From the NCBI GenBank assembly GCA_001938485.1, contig MQRK01242274.1, positions 15,611 through 74,310 of the forward strand: a stretch of DNA of 58,700 nucleotides. Reading direction: 5' to 3'. The notes under the pieces are model-generated. The model was given only the letters and a program-made list of their open reading frames with translations. It ran no database searches and had not been told where the DNA came from. The translations under genes were made by a program, and so were the position numbers. The DNA comes from Girardia tigrina (lineage: Eukaryota). Below, piece by piece: positions 18,340 to 54,060 of this stretch (position 1 is its first letter; the number at the start of each line of letters is the position of its first letter).

Positions 18340-18573
18340 TCAAGACATCTCGCTCACATCGCCATCTTCATGATCATGAGAATATTGGTTGTTCGTCATA
18401 CTGTGTCCATGTAATCGAACGTGTGACCAATCTATATTGCTGAAGGAGTTCTTTCTTTTTGAGCCATAACCGTCAAGTCTTCGCTTAGCTGCGTAGTTTC
18501 TGTTTGCCATCGAAACGTCTATGGCGAGTGCTACTAACAGAACAATCGCAGGAAATAGAATTGATTTCTTCAT
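18340..18573 (-). CDS. Orphan 77-aa putative secreted peptide precursor
   Basis: MKKSILFPAIVLLVALAIDVSMA signal-peptide-like N-terminus, dibasic KR sites, His/Asp-rich tail; TATAAAA about 30 nt upstream (18603-18609, -); GC content above the flanks. Confidence 0.6.
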   Translation of the reverse strand: MKKSILFPAIVLLVALAIDVSMANRNYAAKRRLDGYGSKRKNSFSNIDWSHVRLHGHSMTNNQYSHDHEDGDVSEMS

Positions 18574-19719
18574 TGTATTACTCTCTTCGCTTCTCAATTT
18601 AGTTTTATAATCGAGTGTTCCTTTGACCTTTTTGTAAATTGTAGAGGCGTCTTATCTGAGATATACACAACTGTACAAATACGTGCTGATTATTGGTCGG
18701 TCTTATCTGACACACGAGATTGTGCGGTCTAGGACAATGACATTATCATTTAGTTGACGATGTATAAATTGTTTTTAATTTTTATGTTATTATTTAAAAA
18801 GAAAATGTTTTATATTTTCTATCACGTTTTGCGCTGCCATTATTTGTAACGTTGGAAAGTTTTTTAGGAATATTGTGATATGTATCTTCCTACAGAAAGT
18901 TTGCTTAAGAACAGGTACGAGTCGTGAAGGGAATATGATTTAAAATTAACAAATGATACAAAAGTGTGAAGTTTTGTATAACTCATTGCTTGTCTGTTAA
19001 CTTAGTTCTATTTGTATTAGCGAAAATATTCCTGAAATTTACATATTATTTTATTTGACATTTAAAGTATTTAATTTTGAATTGCTTAACATCAAACCTC
19101 TAAGTTTTAGATCATGGGTCCAAAATATCAACCAATTTTATTATCAAATGTAAGGGAGTTTAAGTTTAAGTTTAACACTAATAAGGTGTAATAACGTTCT
19201 ATTTTTATACAAAAAAAATAATTTAGAGATTTAACTTATATTAAAAACTTAATTCTGTTTGTATTATTCTTTTACTTGTTAAAAATAATACAACAATTAT
19301 AGAAGGCTTTTTTCGAATGGTACTTATTGTATGTTGTGTTTGGTATGTTGTTTTCAGGATCGTTTTTCTTCCAACTAAATGGAAGATTGATATTTTGAAT
19401 GTTTTGAACTGTCGAATTATTCGGACAATTTTAAAATTTAAAAACAACTTTAAAATTAAATTATTATATTTTAATCAATATATAAATATATATATATATA
19501 TATATCTTAAAAATATAAGATAGATTTGAAATGAATGCCCAAATGTTCAGCAATAGCTTTATGAGTATGTCCTTCCTTTTTTCAAGATAAGCATCTGGGT
19601 GCGCTTTTTAATTGAAATTGGTGAAGAGTTACTCATTACCTAAAAATAGAAGATATTTTGATCTATTTAGCAATGTATTAGATGTTTTAACATGTTTTTT
19701 TAACCACATGTTTTAACAG

Positions 19720-32700: not shown

Positions 32701-35700
32701 GTCTATTAGAAAATGAAATTCGAAATCGGTCGTTAAAGAACCCATTTTGAGACTGCACAATCACCCGATTCTGACAGCGTACTATTGCTTGATGCAGTCG
32801 ATGTGTTTGAAAGGATCTTCAGCATTTTATTTTAGACGTTCCTTTGTTTTCCATCAATTTGATTGAAGCAGCTTGTCAGAAAATTAGTTTTCTTTGTAAC
32901 CTTTATTCTGCCTTATTTGAATCATTCTAAAACGTATTTATAACTTTATTTGGTTTATTGTAGTACATAAATTTTACAATGTTTCGATTTAATTTAAATA
33001 AAATATGACAAAGTAATAAACAATTATTATCAATTTGCAATGACAAATAATTAAAAAGAAAAATTTTCTAATAATTTAGTTAAAATAAAATGAATTAAAT
33101 ATAAATGCATTAAATGAATTTTAAATAATTAATTTAATTTTTTTTAAATTATGTGTTTTAAATATTTTTAAAACTCAAAAAACGTTCGTTAAAATTTATT
33201 GTGATCAATTTCGACGGATCAACCGTCATCATCAGACTAAAATTAACAATGATACACTCGTATTTATATATCAAAGCCATGTTTATGTAATTTATAAATC
33301 ATGAAAAGGCTTTCAATAAATTTGAAGTGGATGGTGTTTGCACATTGATTTTAGGATCAAAGGATTTGATCAACAATATGCCTCCCCCGACTGAACGGAA
33401 AAATGAGTATAGTAGAGACTACAGTGCCAGCATTAGTGTACATGTCAGTGATTCATAGACTCTGTATCGGGTAGAAACCATAAATAGACAATACAGAGCC
33501 TACATACTTTCTCGCACAGCTTTAGATGCAAGAATGCGAGCTTTCAGTGCACCGACACACTTCGGTTCGTATCTTGATTCTGTAGAACTTTGGCTGTGTA
33601 AACACATTTCGTACAATGAGTAAAGGGACACCGAAATATCCCCACATCATTTGTATTACTTAATCAAAAGTCGAGAACCACCCTTAAAATCAATCCTGAG
33701 TTCATCTATGCGGTACCGTCGAGGGGGACTGACACATCATTGGGTTCGAAGATTTTGAACATCCTTCATCTGCGTTATTTTGTGAAGCACTAGTACCACT
33801 GGTACTACCTATGGTTCGGTGATCGATCAATAAAAGTCGCTTTAACTATGCATCCGTTTTTATAGGTCTAGTGACAATTTTCCATGGGACATTGAAAAGA
33901 TTTATCACCATTCTGACACTGTGGCGTTGTGATCATATGCACGTTTTTCATGTATCTTTTTAGATCCTTTTGTTCAACAAAAGCTTTGAAACAAGAGGGA
34001 TACATGCATTGCACTCTTAATTTTCTTCGTAAAGTATTTCTTTTCGATGACGGATCGTTGGAGAAAAGAAAATTTACCGTATCATTTTTACAGTTGAAAT
34101 GCGATACTTTAATTTGAAATGTGAAATAAACAAAAATTATAAAATATACTATTTGTTTTAAAATTTGACTTTAAATAACACTACCTATCAACCGATAAAA
34201 ATTTGGCACTGATATTTCTTTTTATACTACTCAATGGTATTGAGCGATCTTCTTCAATCAATCTTTGGACAAGTTCACTTACATCAGTTGTTAAGCGCTT
34301 GAAATTATTGTCACCTTAACTTTAGCACAGACCTGTCCAGTATCATTATATTTTTTTAGGATACGGCACAGTTGTTTTGTGGACGTTAAATGTGGTGGCA
34401 ATTGCAGCTGTCTGCATACCACATTTAAATTATGAGATAATTCGTTCACGAATGTTATTTGATAGGTTTCTTTTTCCAGTCATGGGCAAATCTAAAATAT
34501 TAAAAACGAGTTTGAAATTTAAAATAAATTATGAACACACCAATTTTATGTAAATCTATTGAAAATGGCATATTTTAATTAAAGGAAAAGTTTTATAATT
34601 TTTATAATGTCGCATTTCAACTCGAAAACCCTGTATACCTCTAGACTTATTGTTCCGAATTCACCATTATAAAATTATAGAAATCTAACTCCATAAATTC
34701 TTATAAATCATCTTTTGTAACTTTTTTTCAGAAATTTTTAATAAACATTTAGAAATCAAAAAATAAGTTAATCATGCTTGATAATTGAGAAAATTTTATA
34801 GATTATTTGAAAAAAGTAATAAAATGTTAAATCCCACGTTTGTATTAAAATCTCGGTCAATAATTTCAATTTAAAATAAAAAATATAACAAAAATCGTTC
34901 GAAATGTTCGATCGTCTAAAATGATTGGATAAAAATTCTCTGTTGATAAATTTGCGACATGAGAAAAAATGAATTTGTTGTGGATATGTGAATTAATGGG
35001 GATAAATTTCCTTCAAGATAATACTGGAAATGTTGAAGAAAATCCAGTGGTGGGCCTGGTGGATATTCCTGGGGTTCTTGTCCTCATGTGGTTTCGGAAG
35101 CGGACTCCATACGTTTGTTTTATATTTGGTGAGTACAAATTACATTTCAATTGTTAAAATTTTAATCAATAAATTTTAAAAAATATTTAAATAAATTAAA
35201 AACCGAAAATATTTTTTGAATAAATATTAATTTTTGTTTTTTATTTAAAGAATTCGTAAATTTATTTATTGAATGAGTCTTATTTATATTGATTTACCTT
35301 AATCATCCAAGTATAATGCTCCCAATTTCATCCCGAATTTCAACATCAAACATTGGAAGGGCATTATACTTGAGTATGTGAGAAATCCCTGTTTGCCAAA
35401 TCAAATTCTTTGTAAGAGGAGATCGAATTACGTAATAAAATTTTATTGGTACGTTGGTGGTATTTTATCGATCAGTATAATACAGCGCGTCATAATCAAA
35501 TGAATACCTTCCTCTCTCTTTCCTCCTCCCAATGAAGGCGTTCTTTAGCTCCTTCAACTGAATGTAAAGTGCACCGAAATGCCTTTCACCACCAAAGTCA
35601 CGAATTTGCAAATCTAACCTGCATTCCTCATTCCAAAGACAGTATTTATGTTCGCGTCGCACGGCACTCCCTCTCAACTCAATTGACTTGGCACAGCCGT

Positions 35701-38429
35701 AGGCGTCACTCATTTCATTCAAGGCTTCGGGTCATTATCACGAATGCGTCGGTCAGAAGTTACAGTGAGAATGAAAGCATAAACTTCTGTAATAATTCTG
35801 TATCCCCCCAAACAAGTTCGAAAGGAAAGAGATCTTATTAACTTTTATTTATTTGTGCTCTTTAATGTTTTCTTCCTTTTCCTGAGAGATAAAATGTAAA
35901 AAATTTCATACAGTTAAGGGTACATTGAACAATTTATGTACACGAATACGGATTAAAAAAGAAGCAAAGGAAGAAAACAAAAAAAGTTCCGAGACATGTA
36001 CAATAATCGATTTCTTAAAAAAATAACCAAAATTATTTTTCCAAAATATATATATTAGGTTGGCAAAAGTAATCCATTATTTTAATTAATTATTTATCGA
36101 TCAAACAATTTTTTTTCTTTTTTTTATTCAGTTCTGAGTTACAGGGTGTTAAAAATGGAAGTCAACAAAGAAAAATTCGGTACATTTTACAGTTTTTATT
36201 CGATAGAGGCGAAAATGCAAGCCAGGCGACTGTTATTGTGAATGGTGTTTATGGTGCCAATATTGTAACAGCCAATATTACACGCAATTTGGGTTTCGAC
36301 GATTCCGTGGAAGCATTTTTGGTGCTAAAGATGCACCTCGCACAGGCAGGCCTATCATTGAAAATGACGATAAAATCTCGGCAATGATCATTGGCGATGC
36401 GAGAGCGAGCGCAGCATTGTGGCCGCGGCGGGTTGGCGATGGTGGGTGGGTCGCGGGACGCGGGGGGCTCAAAACAATAACCTCACTGGTCTGTGATTGT
36501 ACGGTTTGTGAATAGCAAATGTCAGATTCGGTTGGTCTTCGGTTTTTGACGTAAATATACAATCTATGCATATATTCCAGGCCTTTGTATATAATTTCCC
36601 ATCTCTTCACATATGCCGGTAGAAAATCATTAATATCGACCATAATCAATTGCTTTTGAATTTCATCGATAAATTTTTCGATTAAAGTAAATGAGTCCAA
36701 ATATAAAGATTCGGCATAAACTTCAGTTCCATCTTTCTTTGCGAAACACACTTCATACACATCACTAAAACTGGAATTCCATTGCGATTTCGATACATCT
36801 TCACATCACAAAACATTCAAAGCCACATCGTTTAACCGACTCCAAATATTCATCATAATTAATTGTTTTAGGTCGTTTGCGGCAAAATCTTCCATATTCA
36901 TTTTTACATTAAGCAAAAATCAAAATTCGCGCAGAAAAACAATATTTTATTTAATTCGAATAAACAAACTAATTGCGGCAAATTCACTCTCAAACAATTT
37001 CAAAATGTAAAAAAACTCGAATCTTTACAAACATAAATAAACAGATGAAATATAATCGATAAAAATTGTTTTTAATTTATCATTTCACATTAATCGATCT
37101 CAGAGAAAATTATTTCATCGGTTTATTATTTAATATACACAATTAAATTAGAACGGTTTCTTGTTTGAGGTTTTTAAATGTTATCTCTTACGTCAAATCA
37201 TGCACGAATTACTCGAATCNNNNNNNNNNNNNNNNNNNNNNNNNNNNNNNNNNNNNNNNNNNNNNNNNNNNNNNNNNNNNNNNNNNNNNNNNNNNNNNNN
37301 NNNNNNNNNCAAAATTTTGAGTTTTTGACGAATATTTTCGTTCCATTTTTCAATTGATCAGAAATTTTGATTATCGAAAGGTTTGTTATTGGTGGAAATT
37401 CGATTTGTTTTCGTATATCGTTGGATTGGCTTTGTTTGTTTTTTTTAAATAGTTCACGTTCGATATTAGATATTTTGTTTTTCAATTTCTCATTTTTCAG
37501 GAATTTTTTTGAAATATAATTTTTGGGGTTAACTTCGATATTGGCCCCCCGAATGTGAATCGAACAATCATAGTTGACCGGCATGTTAGTAGTCGTAGCA
37601 TGGATCAGGAGCTGAAGATCGACCACAAAACGGTTTTAAACCATTTGGACAAAGCAGGCTTCAAAAAGAAACTTGATGTTTGTGTTCCACACCAATTAAC
37701 ACCAAAGAATATGATGGATCGAATTTCCATCTGCAAAGCCTTGGCCAAACAAAATGAAATCGATCAATTTCTTAACCGGATGGTTACTGGGGATAATAAA
37801 TGGGTCACATACGACAATATTGTACGAAAACAATCGTGGTCAAAGCACGATGAAGCACCTCAAACGGTCGCCAAACCAGGACTAACGGCCAGGAAGGTTG
37901 TACTGTGTATTTGGTGGGACTGGAAAGGAATCATAGTAAATGTACTATGAGTTGCTTCCTTAAGGCCAAACACTAAATTCAGATCTGTACTGTCAACAAC
38001 TGGACCGTTTGAAGAAAGCAATTGATGAGAAACGACCAGAATTAGCCAACAGAAGAGGTGTTGTGTTCCATCACGACAACGCCAGACCACATACGTCTGT
38101 AGTGACTCGCCAGAAACTCAGGGAGCTTGGTTGGGTAGTTTTAATGCATCCACCATATAGTCCGGACCTCGCACCAAGCGATTAACACCTTTTTCTCGTA
38201 TTGCAAAATTTCCTGAGTGATAAGAAATTTGGATCAATAGAAGATTGTGAAAATCGATTTCTACAGTTTTTCGTCAATAAGGACCAAAATTTCTACTGAG
38301 GCATTACCTTCAAAATGCCAACTAATTATACAACAAAGTGGTACATATTTGACTCCAAGAGGAGAATCCGAAACATGTTAAATAAAGTTTTGAATTTCAC
38401 GCCAAAATAATGGATTTCTTTTCCCCAAC

Positions 38430-38478
<49 letters not shown>

Positions 38479-41400
38479 ATAAAAAATCATATTCGATTGG
38501 ATATTTAAATCAATATTGTCGAACATAAATTAAAATATAAATTGAAGAAAATAATTTTCAAATTCTGTGCTATCGATTTCATGATTATTGAAAAACAGTA
38601 ACGTGTGAGGCCTTATCAATATGTTCAATGGATCCGAAAATTAATATTGAAGCTTTACACTCAACCTATACATTTTCCAATAGAACCTTAATGACATAAT
38701 TGATCACACAATTTTTTGTTATATGGACTACATAAGGAAGTGAAAAAAACAAAAAAACACAGGTATTCAGAGCGCCTTCCCTTGTTTGGAACACACATTT
38801 TCAGTCTGTCTTAAATAGATCCAAACGCATTTCTACAGTCTTACATGCATAGATTCTATTTGTTCAGACATCTCGCATCTCTTTTGGTCAAGAGACATCA
38901 TTGATGGAAGTAAACTTTATCTTTTAGTTTAGAGAAAACAATTGTAGGTCTTTAATTGGGTCGTCCTTCAATCAATCCTGAATTAAATGAAAATTTAGCG
39001 TTACTGCGTAACACTCTCTGTACATACAACGTATTATTTAATATTTTAACCTTAAAAACTAGTTCCAGGAATTGATTCATTTTAGTTGTCGTTTTCGTGA
39101 GCTAATAGTAGAAATACTGTCCTAGCTCAACGTGTTAATAAATGTGTAAATAAATCTTTATTATTCAAATCAAATTTATCTGTTATGTATAATGTCAAAT
39201 AATCGTTATTCTTGGAAAACTTTTTTCCCACAAATCGCACAAGTGATTTTTTAAATTAAAAACTAGGGCAACTGGTATAGGGAAATCAAAAAACGACTGG
39301 GAGTTTTACATGGTGTGATAACACGAATCAGAAAATTGTGAAAGTAAAAGAGAGTGGTAGCATGTAGGTTCTGAGGATGGTGGAGCTCCTTACTACTGAA
39401 GTTAGAAAGTCTAAGAATGTAATAAAGATAAAAATGGACGTTTCTTGATTGGGCCTCGTAAAGCCCAGATCTGAATCGAATTAGAATCAATTGCCTCTCA
39501 TTATAAAATGATCTCAAGAAATTATTATTTTCAAATTTAGATTTCTCTGAGAATATCTTGTTGATTACACTCAAACCTGCTTTAATGCAATTTTCTTGTG
39601 TGATACATAATTTTTGTGTACGAGATCGCGCAAAAAAGTCGTACAAATAAAAAAGCGCATAAAAGCAGGTCTTAGTGTAATTATTTTATTTTTTACTAAA
39701 ATGCACGAACTTTTATACTAACCAAAAACTTCTAACTGTAATACAGTTTTACACATTTTTATTCCCGTTTCATGTATATATACCAACAAAACATTTGAGC
39801 CTCAAAAGCTGCAAATCTGTATTTTCACGTTACGTTTTATATTTTTCTCCTGCTCTAACCGACATTCGGTTCTAAATGAACAAAACACTTGCTGCATACA
39901 CGTATGACATTCTCAAACTGCTCAACACAAATAAAACCGTAGCACACAAACTTCACTGACACAGTCAAATGGTTAACACAAGTCTTCACAAACTTATGAA
40001 TAATGCATCCAAAAGTGAGTCGACCGAAACCGATATTCAAATTAATATTTAAAATTTATTATTACATCTTTATTGAAAAGTGTTTTTTCTTTGCATTTTC
40101 TAATGCTTAAAACTTAATTCAGACAGATTTGGTTCTGCAAATATTTTTTCTAAAAGCACTCTGATTAATTTAATTTTTAATTCAAAATTATAATTCTTAA
40201 TTGAATAAAATTATCATAAAATAATTGAATCAGGGTCCGTTCATTGCTAAAGTAACAATGGCAGCTTATGAGTGCGGCAGCACTAATTTCCCTGAACCAC
40301 CATACCCAGATCAATTCATTTGTCCCGATGAAATAACTAAGAGCGAGATGAAGACACTGATTGTGGTGCGCAAGATTCTTCTCGAATCAATGCTGTGGGT
40401 TGGGATACTTTAATTATTGATCATTCGATCAATTATTCACAAATCGATCAATTATCGATCGGTGTTTAATTACAGGGTTTCGGAACTGCAGTTGGAGAAC
40501 TACCTCCATATTTTATGGCGCGTGCATCCGCTCTCAGTGGCTCCAATGATTCCCTGAGTACCGACACCGCCGAGTCCGCCTGGCACAAGCGTGCTCAAGA
40601 TGCCATGCGGACAATCGTAAAGCGGGTCGGATTTGTAGGCATTGTCTTGTGTGCATCTGTCCCTAACCCCCTATTCGACTTGGCCGGTATGACCTGCGGA
40701 CACTTCTTGGTGCCGTTTTCTACTTTCTTTGGTGCCACGGTGCTGGGAAAAGCAGTGAACAAGATGCTGCTTCAGATGGCGTTCGTTGTGCTCATATTCT
40801 CTCAGGACAAGGTTGCCTGGATACAGGCCAACATCCGGTGAGAGTCTTTGCGTCAATTCATTCATAATAGTAATAATAAAGTGCTAAAATTATCGAACAA
40901 ACTAAATTAAACTCAACATAGAAAAAATATTGATTGAAAAAAGACATTCGTTTTGAAATTAGTTTTTTAATCGGTTTTTAGAGATTTGTTGATTTATTTG
41001 TATTTACATTTGGAGTTTGTTTGTAAAATGCTTTATTGGACGAAGGAAAAATAGAGAAATACGTGGCGATGATCGATCAATGACCTCATTTACAAGTTCT
41101 TCGAAAAACAAGTTCTTCGAACGATAAATTCTTCGAATGCACTTTTTTTTCGAAAATATCTTCTTACAGAAATATTATTAAAAAATTAATATTTTTTGAA
41201 AAAATAATTATCGATATTGTTATAGTTACAAAATTAATTAATTAAAAATTGATAAAACGAAATCCGGATGATAATGTTCTTTTAAAAACAACACTCATCC
41301 ATTAAAAAATATATTTATTGACAATATAATTCGACGGATCTACCGTCATCTTCAGGTCACTAATTAATAATCAATTCACCTGTATATAAATACAAAAATG

Positions 41401-53400: not shown

Positions 53401-53970
53401 TAAACACATTTTTCAAAACAGTCGGTATTTTTTCAATCAAAAATATCGTTGTGAAGATAGAGGATTTTAAAGTTACTAATATTTTTCACACTCGGTCCTT
53501 AAAATACACCAAATCATAAGCAAACACTACAAAAAATTAAAGCAAAAATTAATTTTTTTTCTTCTGGTTTTCATCTTCACACAATTTCGTCGCACTGTTA
53601 ACATTGGATCCGTTTCCATTTGCAGAAATGTGCCTCGGTACGGTGAGTCGTTACATTCATTGATCGACGAGTTTCTGTCGCAACAGCGCGAGAAGATCCA
53701 TAAATCCATCGTATCAGAGGTATCCTTCATTAAAGCGTCTGTCTCGGTCTCATTAATTTTCTCTATCTCTGCGCTCGCAACCAATAGAAACAGAGCTGGC
53801 TGCAGCTGATATTCGGCTACATCCAACTGATCGTCATTCTCGGATTTGTGATATCGATCATCCACTCGCTGGCCGACAATTACGCGGCGCGTCTCCGCAA
53901 ATGGCGCTCCGACTACAACCAGTGCGTTACGACCACCGGTGACGACCAGGCCAAGTTGAAGAACCACTGA
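29463..53970 (+). CDS. VMP1: Vacuole membrane protein 1, complete 6-exon gene, 402 aa: join(29463-29756,35018-35128,40234-40398,40476-40837,53626-53719,53788-53970)
   Basis: All five introns are GT-AG with compatible phases (0,0,0,2,0). The spliced protein has VMP1 motifs: [99 protein letters not shown]. Confidence 0.96.
29790..30740. repeat. Extremely AT-rich low-complexity tract at the start of VMP1 intron 1
   Basis: Almost only A/T, T-biased on the + strand. Confidence 0.85.
30745..32279. mobile_element. TIR element with 5'-TGT termini (possibly Ginger-like) carrying a ~21-bp minisatellite
   Basis: TGTTGTGCCGAATTTGCGCAATTGCC matches the reverse complement of the right end (TGTTATGCCGTATTTGTGTAATTACC); no clear target-site duplication. 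Confidence 0.75.
30970..32110. repeat. Tandem array of ~21-bp units (TTTTTCATATTAAATCGATA), about 50 copies
   Basis: Directly visible; runs of variant units recur as higher-order blocks. Confidence 0.95.
32709..32895 (+). pseudogene. VMP1: Degenerate duplicate of VMP1 exon 1 inside intron 1
   Basis: Near-identical to ~29541-29770 (gaaatcggtcgttaaagaacc...tactattgcttgatg) with a ~33-nt deletion, further indels and a destroyed donor (cagaaa|attagt). Confidence 0.9.
33199..33239 (-). ncRNA. Minimal type I hammerhead ribozyme (intact core)
   Basis: tagt CTGATGA T GACGG ttgat CCGTC GAAA TTGAT C acaa. Confidence 0.8.
33199..33390 (-). mobile_element. Penelope-like 3' end (pseudo-LTR)
   Basis: [25 protein letters not shown], then TATATAAA, a hammerhead and AATAAA. 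Confidence 0.8.
33400..34010 (-). mobile_element. Decayed C2H2 zinc-finger-bearing fragment, probably a non-LTR element
   Basis: [23 protein letters not shown]; resembles the zinc finger at ~46460. Confidence 0.4.
34085..34634 (-). mobile_element. Internally deleted IS630/Tc1-like element
   Basis: Inverted ends CAGTTGAAATGCGA / TCGCATTTCAACTCGAAAACCCTG|TA; HTH remnant [16 protein letters not shown]...[12 protein letters not shown]. Confidence 0.7.
35018..35128 (+). CDS. VMP1: VMP1 exon 2 (IILEMLKK...HTFVLYL)
   Basis: Acceptor AAG at 35015-17, 111 nt, donor GTGAGT at 35129; [23 protein letters not shown] motif. This frame is missed by the ORF track. Confidence 0.95.
36392..37566. mobile_element. 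TG...CA-bounded insert with a 5-bp duplication (ATCAT), carrying the cullin-2 fragment
   Basis: ATCAT at 36387-91 and 37567-71; insert begins TGGCG and ends GAACA; contains an N gap at 37220-37309. Confidence 0.65.
36482..36900 (-). pseudogene. CUL2: Cullin-2-like N-terminal exon fragment (one stop, probable frameshift)
   Basis: [35 protein letters not shown]...AESLY...[23 protein letters not shown]...PTESDICY parallels the CUL2 cullin repeat 1; it ends at a plausible GT donor (gag|gttatt). Confidence 0.8.
40234..40398 (+). CDS. VMP1: VMP1 exon 3 (GPFIAKV...ESMLW)
   Basis: CAG acceptor at 40231-33; [17 protein letters not shown]; donor GT at 40399. Confidence 0.95.
40476..40837 (+). CDS. 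VMP1: VMP1 exon 4 ([16 protein letters not shown]...QANIR)
   Basis: TACAG acceptor ends at 40475; DedA/VTT-domain core; donor GTGAGA at 40838 (phase 2). Confidence 0.96.
41315..42805. mobile_element. Penelope-like element with an inverted duplication (RT thumb plus GIY-YIG)
   Basis: ORFs 41432-41977 (-) and 42034-42669 (+) are near-identical: [31 protein letters not shown]. Confidence 0.92.
41319..41359 (-). ncRNA. Minimal hammerhead ribozyme, GAAA mutated to GAAT
   Basis: TGAC CTGAAGA T GACGG tagat CCGTC GAAT TATAT T GTCA; perfect stems I and II. Confidence 0.7.
43960..44650. mobile_element. Inverted pair of Penelope-like 3' ends, each with a degenerate hammerhead
   Basis: [28 protein letters not shown] (-) and [17 protein letters not shown] (+); hammerhead relics at 43997-44036 (-) and 44573-44613 (+). 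Confidence 0.85.
45650..46870 (+). mobile_element. Decayed RTE/CR1-like non-LTR 3' portion with a C2H2 zinc finger
   Basis: [19 protein letters not shown]...[12 protein letters not shown] (post-RT motif); [24 protein letters not shown]. Confidence 0.65.
49338..49852 (-). mobile_element. Internally deleted mariner (CGAGGG-type TIRs)
   Basis: TA|CGAGGGGCGTTCCGAAA...TTTCGGAACGCCCCTCG|TA; [14 protein letters not shown]...AVYNWV. Confidence 0.9.
50222..50299. repeat. 78-bp mini element with perfect 18-bp inverted ends
   Basis: TAACGGATATTATCAAAT / ATTTGATAATATCCGTTA. Confidence 0.8.
50354..50982. repeat. Foldback-like imperfect inverted repeat with ~280-bp arms
   Basis: ~50354-50632 matches the reverse complement of ~50715-50982; a partial third arm lies at ~50985-51025. 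Confidence 0.8.
51270..52132 (+). mobile_element. Decayed Tc1/mariner-superfamily transposase (DD37E-like)
   Basis: [26 protein letters not shown]...[41 protein letters not shown]. Confidence 0.75.
52150..53384 (-). mobile_element. Full-length Tc1 element (1235 bp)
   Basis: TA|CAGTGCGTTCCA...TGGAACGCACTG|TA flanking an intact ORF. Confidence 0.95.
52266..53306 (-). CDS. Intact Tc1 DD34E transposase, 346 aa
   Basis: [18 protein letters not shown], then 34 residues to NPIENLW; no stops or frameshifts. Confidence 0.93.
   Translation of the reverse strand: MTTRNIDIRFRIIIVELMNEGHSTGRIQEIMKVRHGIIVSKRGIQKIVPKFKTVGTNEDEKRSGRPSKLPKRSERIIRRICMKNRSMSISKITGAFNAAGMIHESRSAVNRILIKYGLKSHYAVYEPLLNGKQRKRRVEWARDKQNWDIDKWSNVVFSDESMFRTYSHTRSEIVRRFDNERLSHICTKKVLQHGAKVRVWGSFSRFGVGIFKRINGNLNWKNYQDLNVNNIEITGQCLVFPLPNFIFQQDNAPCHRSASSVSFLKTKKINILDWPANSPDVNPIENLWGIIKRKINNMDTLNSEKMWTEIQKLWYNIPSSLCRRLVYSMPRRVSSIIKMKGYHIKY
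53626..53719 (+). CDS. VMP1: VMP1 exon 5 (NVPRYGESL...KSIVSE)
   Basis: TTTGCAG acceptor ends at 53625, phase matches exon 4; [11 protein letters not shown] corresponds to VMP1 EYLEAQRQKLH; donor GTATCC at 53720. Confidence 0.92.
53788..53970 (+). CDS. VMP1: VMP1 exon 6, terminal (KQSWLQLIF...KLKNH*)
   Basis: TAG acceptor at 53785-87 (an in-frame alternative CAG lies at 53791-93); final TM helix; TGA at 53968-70. Confidence 0.92.
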   Translation, partial: KQSWLQLIFGYIQLIVILGFVISIIHSLADNYAARLRKWRSDYNQCVTTTGDDQAKLKNH

Positions 53971-54060
53971 GAGATGATCACACTCGATCGATCGATCGAT
54001 CGATATTTGGCGTTCCATTTATGATATATTTATGATATCTATGATATATATATATTGTGT

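Follow-up and report, generated by a model that had tools for sequence, protein, structure and literature searches.

A solo BEL/Pao long terminal repeat with a captured cullin-2 mRNA piece in Girardia tigrina, and a family with host cargo upstream of ubiquitin-Gag

In this study, we analyzed a 58,700-nucleotide stretch of the Girardia tigrina genome (contig MQRK01242274.1 of assembly GCA_001938485.1, positions 15,611 to 74,310 of the forward strand; hereafter the window). Within it, a 1175-bp insert holding a piece of a cullin-2-like gene interrupts a mariner transposon in an intron of VMP1. We found that this insert, which lies on the minus strand, is with near certainty a solo long terminal repeat (LTR) of a BEL/Pao retrotransposon. 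It is a dead remnant of a family that represents a variant of LTR-mediated capture new in this form. The LTRs of the family carry front ends of host mRNAs, spliced where the parent was found and mostly in frame with a ubiquitin-Gag fusion; they were probably captured by template switching, and a host deubiquitinase is predicted to release Gag.

Identification of the insert as a solo BEL/Pao LTR

The insert begins with TG, ends with CA and is bracketed by two copies of ATCAT (Table 1), as the original prediction had stated, and empty mariner sites agree with this. The spacing at the empty site equaled that of the window minus the insert and one 5-mer in 13 of 14 other mariner copies, which were compared out of 1589 first-look candidates. 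The 5-mer of the 13 uninterrupted copies that aligned at the site was ATCGA in 10 and ATCAT in none, so this mariner copy had changed before the LTR arrived. Excision had been proposed to restore the mariner frame exactly. The spacing supports this, whereas the frame is restored merely locally because the mariner copy is decayed. Identity to the closest relatives was 87-94% for the mariner and 97-98% for the LTR insert. A run of N lies within the insert, and a mis-join there had been named as a way in which the prediction could fail. In all seven sister copies that were checked, the corresponding flanks are separated by 86-89 bases, which rules out an assembly mis-join.

A search with the two halves of the insert gave 879 and 258 first-look candidates (the best 40 of each were scored) and revealed a dispersed family with fixed ends. 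Among 27 distinct LTRs with both ends, 20 had an exact 5-bp duplication and 2 had a mismatch; the other five, 4 preceded by a polypurine tract and 1 followed by a primer site, are 3' or 5' LTRs of longer elements. An identical purine run preceded the LTR in five contigs and in locus L060. The LTR end followed by a tRNA primer-binding site gave 35 exact matches, versus none for the control. The primer site is complementary to tRNA-Met(CAT) genes at their 3' end; among eight loci examined, ARAGORN found three such genes, all in one locus, and the remaining loci look decayed. In L060, Pfam identified DUF1759, RVT_1, Peptidase_A17, Integrase_H2C2, rve and DUF5641 in this order (the rve match, E 0.005, was under the cut-off), and the element terminates in a cullin-2 LTR. 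An aspartyl protease was found in L054, and ubiquitin-Gag was joined to the same reverse transcriptase in L157 and L288 (96% to L060). These results demonstrate the first part of our explanation, namely LTR ends, 5-bp duplications, a polypurine tract, a tRNA-Met primer site and BEL/Pao gag-pol.

Insertion by a retroviral-type integrase, as first proposed, is therefore borne out by sister copies with 5-bp duplications next to BEL/Pao gag-pol. The insert had also been taken for a Pack-type element that mobilizes host gene pieces. The family does spread such pieces, but as a BEL/Pao LTR rather than as a Pack or Ginger element. A Ginger-like DNA element with genomic-DNA cargo would account for the TG...CA ends and the 5-bp duplication. 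However, the ends share TG/CA alone, without further inverted repeats, the cargo has lost its intron, and a polypurine tract, a primer site and retrotransposon genes adjoin sister copies. This reading has practically no probability left.

Two observations were made on the internal parts of the family. The element in L060 (1802-9779; G000:C227395) is surrounded by one 5-bp duplication, yet its two LTRs begin differently, and its 5' end has neither primer site nor ubiquitin. Loci L054, L034, L051 and L150 are internally deleted, with most of pol gone, and have a long acidic frame in common after the Gag/protease part; they are likely non-autonomous sub-families.

The cullin-2 cargo came from a spliced mRNA

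The original prediction recognized a cullin-2-like piece in the insert. Pfam assigned it to Cullin, and the best solved-structure matches were all Cullin-2 (top match 4WQO); the closest named cullin-2 relatives were those of Heterobilharzia and Taenia. We identified the parent cullin-2 gene in locus L142, which has exon 1, a 49-bp GT..AG intron 1, exon 2 and a 57-bp intron. RNA contigs from all four runs skip both introns. As shown in Table 1, the window LTR aligned with exon 1 from codon 4 (94.7%) and with the 5' part of exon 2 (94.2%), and intron 1 was gone. Because a 95%-identical piece lacks intron 1, there is hardly any doubt that the cargo came from spliced mRNA. This overturns the earlier view of a first coding exon with upstream DNA and the start of a GC-rich intron, derived from DNA or unspliced RNA. 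The supposed intron is the conserved LTR end common to all sub-families.

Other candidates for the parent were rejected. Neither of two contigs that hold the cullin-2 C-terminus (L095, L096) extends to exon 1, and the parent's start was identified via P0001; eight weaker cullin-2-like matches (L070-L077) are decayed fragments. No long relatives of the cargo emerged from a protein search.

At the protein level, 55 cullin-2 matches were found including the parent, most of them without an internal stop. The window cargo has a premature stop at 36806-36808 that is present in few copies, and further in-frame ATGs lie at 36901 and 36895. In 22 distinct cullin-2 LTRs, private changes comprised 57 non-synonymous, 10 synonymous and 5 stop changes, and shared changes comprised 20, 8 and 0, respectively, over 277 non-synonymous, 73 synonymous and 24 stop sites. 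The ratio of non-synonymous to synonymous rates (dN/dS) of shared changes was 0.66 and did not differ from that of private changes (P 0.15). Thus, there is no significant purifying selection on the cullin-2 protein sequence, and the frame is kept. In lineage B, to which the window copy belongs, a 40-nt loss removed cullin-2's own start (residues 1-13). It is accompanied by a 1-nt gain in 17 of 17 readable copies, and the next ATG is thus in frame. The other shared indel in cullin-2 LTRs measures 15 nt. This pattern is consistent with selection that keeps the frame open. When single cullin-2 LTRs were put to a strict frame test, 5/12 and 1/2 passed; this test was set aside because it miscounts copies whose LTR end lies one base later and mostly measures decay after insertion.

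The fragment had been described as the region that binds Elongin C. On a related reading, it would be an accessory protein that occupies Elongin C as a decoy, so that the CRL2 ligases of the host are blocked. The piece does cover the N-terminal region of cullin-2 in 4WQO, a structure with Elongin B/C that includes the interface, and the prevalence of stop-free matches would suit a functional product. Against this stand the absence of significant purifying selection, the loss of residues 1-13 in lineage B, the stop in the window copy and the unrelated genes found in the same slot of other LTRs. The region was correctly named, but a cullin decoy is unsupported, and we regard it as extremely improbable.

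One slot holds many host cargoes, mostly in the frame of Gag

Host pieces that differ between LTRs occupy one slot immediately upstream of the conserved LTR end, in the sense orientation only, and at least nine unrelated cargo genes were found there. The second part of our explanation is thereby observed directly: the sense-strand slot is swappable, and both cargoes whose parent was found are intron-free. The second of these is VAC14, the cargo of a sister family, in which two introns are missing and which starts some 19 bases upstream of its own ATG; 44 VAC14 matches were found at the protein level, parent included.

The reading frame was examined at 36 LTR/primer-site junctions in 28 clusters. 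Stop-free stretches of at least 55 amino acids (aa) within 1100 bp added up to 4769 aa in the Gag frame, compared to 1510 and 1553 aa in the other two sense frames, and those reaching the primer site numbered 19, compared to 2 and 1. Pfam named eight cargoes in the Gag frame (Cullin, VAC14, SMC_N, HR1, ThiF, 14-3-3, PRMT_C and BTB), whereas 73 antisense stretches gave no Pfam match. With eight of ten named genes in the Gag frame, P was 0.003 at a one-in-three expectation. In 5' LTRs the frame continues through primer site, spacer, ubiquitin and Gag, and in one contig it stays open for 1118 codons, starting in VAC14, crossing the primer site and ubiquitin and entering Gag. A PRC1-like cargo (L123, MAP65 match) was excluded from the count since a run of N lies between cargo and primer site. 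The cargo names NDUFS4 and PKN are presumed from inspection by eye; Pfam gave HR1 alone. These results indicate that selection has very probably kept the cargo in frame with Gag.

Alternatively, the cargoes might be untranslated passengers of the LTR, with the frame pattern a by-product and Gag started from an ATG in the spacer. The cullin-2 changes do look neutral, the spacer contains ATGs of its own, and frames are broken in some sub-lineages. However, passive cargo does not account for eight in-frame genes out of ten, for the excess of open stretches that reach the primer site or for the compensating 1-nt gain in every readable lineage-B copy, and a ubiquitin at the start of Gag would be of little use without an upstream extension. 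We consider passive cargo very unlikely.

RNA contigs cover the LTR, and some span the LTR end and the primer site. They were not counted as expression because they show neither start, strand nor freedom from DNA. In one LTR variant (L053:390-1062), RNA contigs of up to 3.4 kb match short U3-like parts and then diverge, and this U3-like region may also be a patchwork of host mRNA pieces.

Ubiquitin precedes Gag

Ubiquitin, a Pfam match, was found after 26 of the 35 primer sites. Its C-terminal LRGG is present in 19 of 22 readable copies, in frame directly before Gag. In eight ungapped ubiquitins with 55-68% identity to a near-canonical copy, R72-G75 were kept in all eight. The spacer between primer site and ubiquitin was a multiple of three in 16 of 21 copies free of N and in 8 of 12 distinct lengths (P 0.019). 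These counts of ubiquitins and spacers omit L256, a tRNA-derived locus, and L112, which has a partial ubiquitin unit alone. In searches for relatives, the Gag part alone gave one unnamed match and a spacer-ubiquitin-Gag query was swamped by polyubiquitins; neither showed a spread to other species.

The ubiquitins differ between older and younger sub-families. In older sub-families (L155, L156, L163, L168, L169, L172, L288) ubiquitin is 55-68% identical to the near-canonical copy of the younger ones, and the near-canonical ubiquitin of the younger sub-families has a partial extra unit. This suggests, from sequence comparison, that the younger sub-families may have captured ubiquitin afresh from a polyubiquitin mRNA.

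Cargo boundaries and capture joins

The 5' edge of the cargo carries a spliced-leader-like motif in 21 loci (15 PKN-type, 5 cullin-2 lineage A and 1 other). In lineage A this piece is 39 nt long, ends in ATG and abuts the ATG of cullin-2. The 39-mer aligned over its full length to one spliced-leader RNA (SL-RNA)-like gene, with 30 identical positions and a score of 34 (maximum among shuffles, 30), and no SL gene within one mismatch of it was found among the host candidates. The host has 18 SL-RNA-like loci (L194-L205, L227-L237) with four leader variants, in which a leader ending in ATG is followed by a GT donor, a stem partner and an Sm-like site; Rfam gave no matching family for the five candidates tested. 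The parent cullin-2 gene has AG directly before its ATG, and one RNA contig carries there a non-genomic leader that differs from the LTR piece. As judged from these alignments, the cullin-2 capture thus likely extended as far as the 5' terminus of a trans-spliced mRNA. The spliced leader was rejected as a universal 5' boundary: the motif occurs in cullin-2 and PKN-type LTRs and one other locus alone, and in a scan of the other cargo LTRs, no full-length match to the leader scored higher than shuffles did.

The cullin-2 and PKN-type LTRs have both cargo flanks in common. At the 3' join of the cullin-2 mRNA to the PKN-type LTR, about 10 of 12 bases are shared, inside exon 2. The VAC14 join has 4 shared bases, inside exon 3, and the join of 14-3-3 to an older PRMT stub has 5; all three are raw counts. 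For 14-3-3, 662 first-look candidates were obtained and the best 150 were scored. Newer cargo lies 5' of older stubs, as expected if copying starts at the primer site and then jumps to a host mRNA.

Splicing could also have brought in the cargo. In such an exon trap, or 5' transduction, an element lying in a host intron would have a cryptic acceptor in its LTR to which the host's 5' exons are spliced; reverse transcription of the hybrid RNA would then leave these exons in the LTR. No co-packaging is needed on this reading to explain why cargo is sense-only, intron-free and 5'-biased. The last codon is the same in two independent 14-3-3 captures, and at that position a related genomic copy (L312, 87% identical) carries a GT donor; AG is present at the join of the PRMT-cargo LTR. 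In contrast, the cullin-2 cargo ends within exon 2 and that of VAC14 within exon 3, and both joins have shared bases instead of donor/acceptor pairs; the 14-3-3 join has shared bases too. Splicing capture is unlikely as the general route, although it may apply to some captures alone; frame selection and release by ubiquitin would operate identically under it.

A third 14-3-3 paralogue was observed in L302-L310 (e.g., G000:C172948, C84314), where its front end is followed by a different shared tail of about 129 bp that is not the BEL LTR end. This tail is nested in some BEL LTRs (L295, L298, L299). On sequence grounds, there seems to be a second gene-capturing repeat family in the genome.

Proposed mechanism and observations that weigh against it

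Following the retroviral cycle, reverse transcriptase would start at the primer site, copy the LTR end, jump at a few shared bases onto a host mRNA, copy toward the 5' end of that mRNA and return to the element. The new piece would then be copied into both LTRs, with older cargo left over as a stub on the 3' side of the newer. One frame runs through cargo, primer site, spacer, ubiquitin and Gag far more often than expected by chance, and captures in frame would likely be favored, since they would supply a start codon for Gag. The element RNA is predicted to start upstream of the cargo and to be translated from the cargo ATG. A host deubiquitinase cutting after LRGG is predicted to free a normal Gag whatever the cargo, which would make the slot tolerant. 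The window copy would have arisen by recombination between two LTRs.

Several observations weigh against this template-switch mechanism or against parts of it. The element was pieced together from L053, L054, L060, L150, L157 and L288, and no single intact element, defined as two matching LTRs with ubiquitin and a full gag-pol, was assembled; the assembly is fragmented, the 5' end of L060 is deleted and its LTRs start differently, and L054 lacks pol. The junctions, being clustered, are not all independent. Snapin, STI1 and a frameshifted second VAC14 copy are off-frame cargoes, and the PRMT cargo is not N-terminal. The absence of stops among the 28 shared cullin-2 changes is not significant alone (P 0.15). 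For nine of the 35 primer sites, no ubiquitin lies within 1.5 kb; a stop at ubiquitin residue 76 is common to two sister copies, a glycine is missing from one copy, and two copies share an out-of-frame spacer of 668 nt. Both 14-3-3 captures end at the intron position of a related genomic copy, which fits splicing equally. AATAAA lies 68 bases upstream of the leader remnant, and the translation step fails if the RNA begins downstream of the cargo ATG.

A bolder version of the mechanism is possible but doubtful. The lineage may lack a fixed start of its own and snatch the 5' ends of host mRNAs, with leader and start codon; the spliced leader, common to many host mRNAs, would then serve as homology for swapping and a captured ubiquitin as a universal release signal. 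If so, the start of any host message could drive Gag, and swapping would be a built-in way of borrowing expression signals or of varying the sequence exposed to host silencing.

Comparison with known systems

Transducing retroviruses capture cellular mRNA by template switching and translate it as a Gag fusion (Gag-onc). The host protein is then the selected product and Gag is usually destroyed, whereas here Gag is kept and the host piece seems disposable.

LTR-mediated retroposition also captures mRNA by template switching (Tan et al. 2016, PMC5131818), and spliced mRNA pieces, short shared joins, multi-gene chimeras and further rounds of copying are common to both systems. Unlike in that report, where the retrocopy replaces part of the internal coding region and yields a non-autonomous product, the cargo here lies inside the LTR, solo LTRs included, is repeatedly swapped in one slot and is in frame with the element's own Gag.

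A survey of BEL/Pao elements includes such families in a planarian, Schmidtea mediterranea (PMC3118150). The present family resembles them in DUF1759, reverse transcriptase, Peptidase_A17, integrase and DUF5641, in TG...CA LTRs and 5-bp duplications, and in its primer site, polypurine tract and solo LTRs. It differs in the host mRNA pieces in its LTR and in the ubiquitin fused to the start of Gag. The word ubiquitin is absent from the main text of this survey, of a study of extra open reading frames in rotifers (PMC5408684) and of two planarian genome papers (PMC11410931 and bioRxiv 10.64898/2025.12.11.693146). Burro giant elements are likewise planarian LTR elements with host-like domains, including a ubiquitin/SUMO-like one (PMC6431247). 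However, they belong to the Gypsy clade and carry fixed domains after Gag in a long polyprotein, not variable young LTR cargo before Gag.

In pestiviruses, natural ubiquitin insertions are processing signals at which host hydrolases cut and free the viral protein (PMC8310069). The cytopathic strains of bovine viral diarrhea virus (BVDV Osloss, CP1, CP Rit) are similar in that the captured ubiquitin follows other sequence and lies in frame directly before a viral protein. Unlike the present family, these are RNA viruses with rare, lineage-ending events and no swappable leader, and cleavage is proven there and predicted here. Flatworm leaders end in an ATG usable as a start codon, and partial leaders occur in LTR and long interspersed nuclear element (LINE) loci of parasitic flatworms (PMC12582326, citing Cheng 2006). 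Both there and here, leader sequence lies inside mobile elements. Those leaders are read as belonging to trans-spliced element transcripts, whereas the leader-like piece here is joined to a host ATG inside the LTR. None of the literature titles searched describes swappable in-frame LTR cargo before ubiquitin-Gag, and most subscription journals, Repbase and supplements, which lay outside coverage, could describe the family.

The family combines two devices known before, the capture of mRNA by LTR elements and the use of ubiquitin to signal cleavage, in one design with the LTR as a replaceable leader cassette. Its natural captures form a dated series whose joins are mapped, and are thus useful in asking how cellular RNA is transduced by retroelements. 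The dozens of open host-gene fragments per sub-family, as counted above for cullin-2 and VAC14, can mislead annotation, and they could feed small-RNA silencing of the parent genes.

Features of the window

The features are listed in Table 1. The original prediction had placed the insert antisense in VMP1 intron 2, and the LTR site indeed lies between VMP1 coding exons 2 and 3, antisense to the gene. The nesting of the LTR in the mariner within VMP1 is incidental.

Table 1. Coordinates of the LTR insert, its parts and its surroundings in the window
Feature	Position	Strand	Evidence
Solo LTR, 1175 bp, BEL/Pao, cullin-2-cargo sub-family, lineage B	36392..37566	-	Dispersed family with constant ends; 97-98% identity to closest copies
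Conserved GC-rich LTR end (U5-like), open in cargo frame	36392..36500	-	Last 80-120 bp common to LTRs with different cargo
Captured cullin-2 mRNA piece, exon 1 from codon 4 and 5' part of exon 2, junction near 36554	36501..36874	-	94.7%/94.2% identity to host exons
Two in-frame ATG codons, the first after the leader remnant	36851..36856	-	Candidate starts
Remnant (first 9 bases) of putative spliced-leader-like piece, 39 bases in lineage A	36875..36883	-	Putative spliced leader by likeness
Variable upstream LTR part (U3-like), including the N stretch	36884..37566	-	Among LTR variants just the first 60-95 bp in common
Target-site duplication, left (ATCAT)	36387..36391		Duplication and comparison with uninterrupted mariner copies
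Target-site duplication, right (ATCAT)	37567..37571		Duplication and comparison with uninterrupted mariner copies
Decayed mariner, recipient of the LTR	36055..38433	+	Terminal repeats, transposase Pfam matches, 87-94% identity to 14 other copies
VMP1 coding intron 2, contains mariner and LTR	35129..40233 (approximate ends)	+	Flanking exons read by translation; VTT domain match

A moderately GC-rich stretch of 380 bp (35460-35840) with open frames on both strands lies in the VMP1 intron upstream of the mariner. Elsewhere in the window, open frames of 163 and 103 codons, starting from or near ATG, occupy 53530-54018 and 18343-18651 on the minus strand; by eye, neither is transposon-like. The latter has a hydrophobic start and dibasic sites and, also by eye, resembles a peptide precursor.

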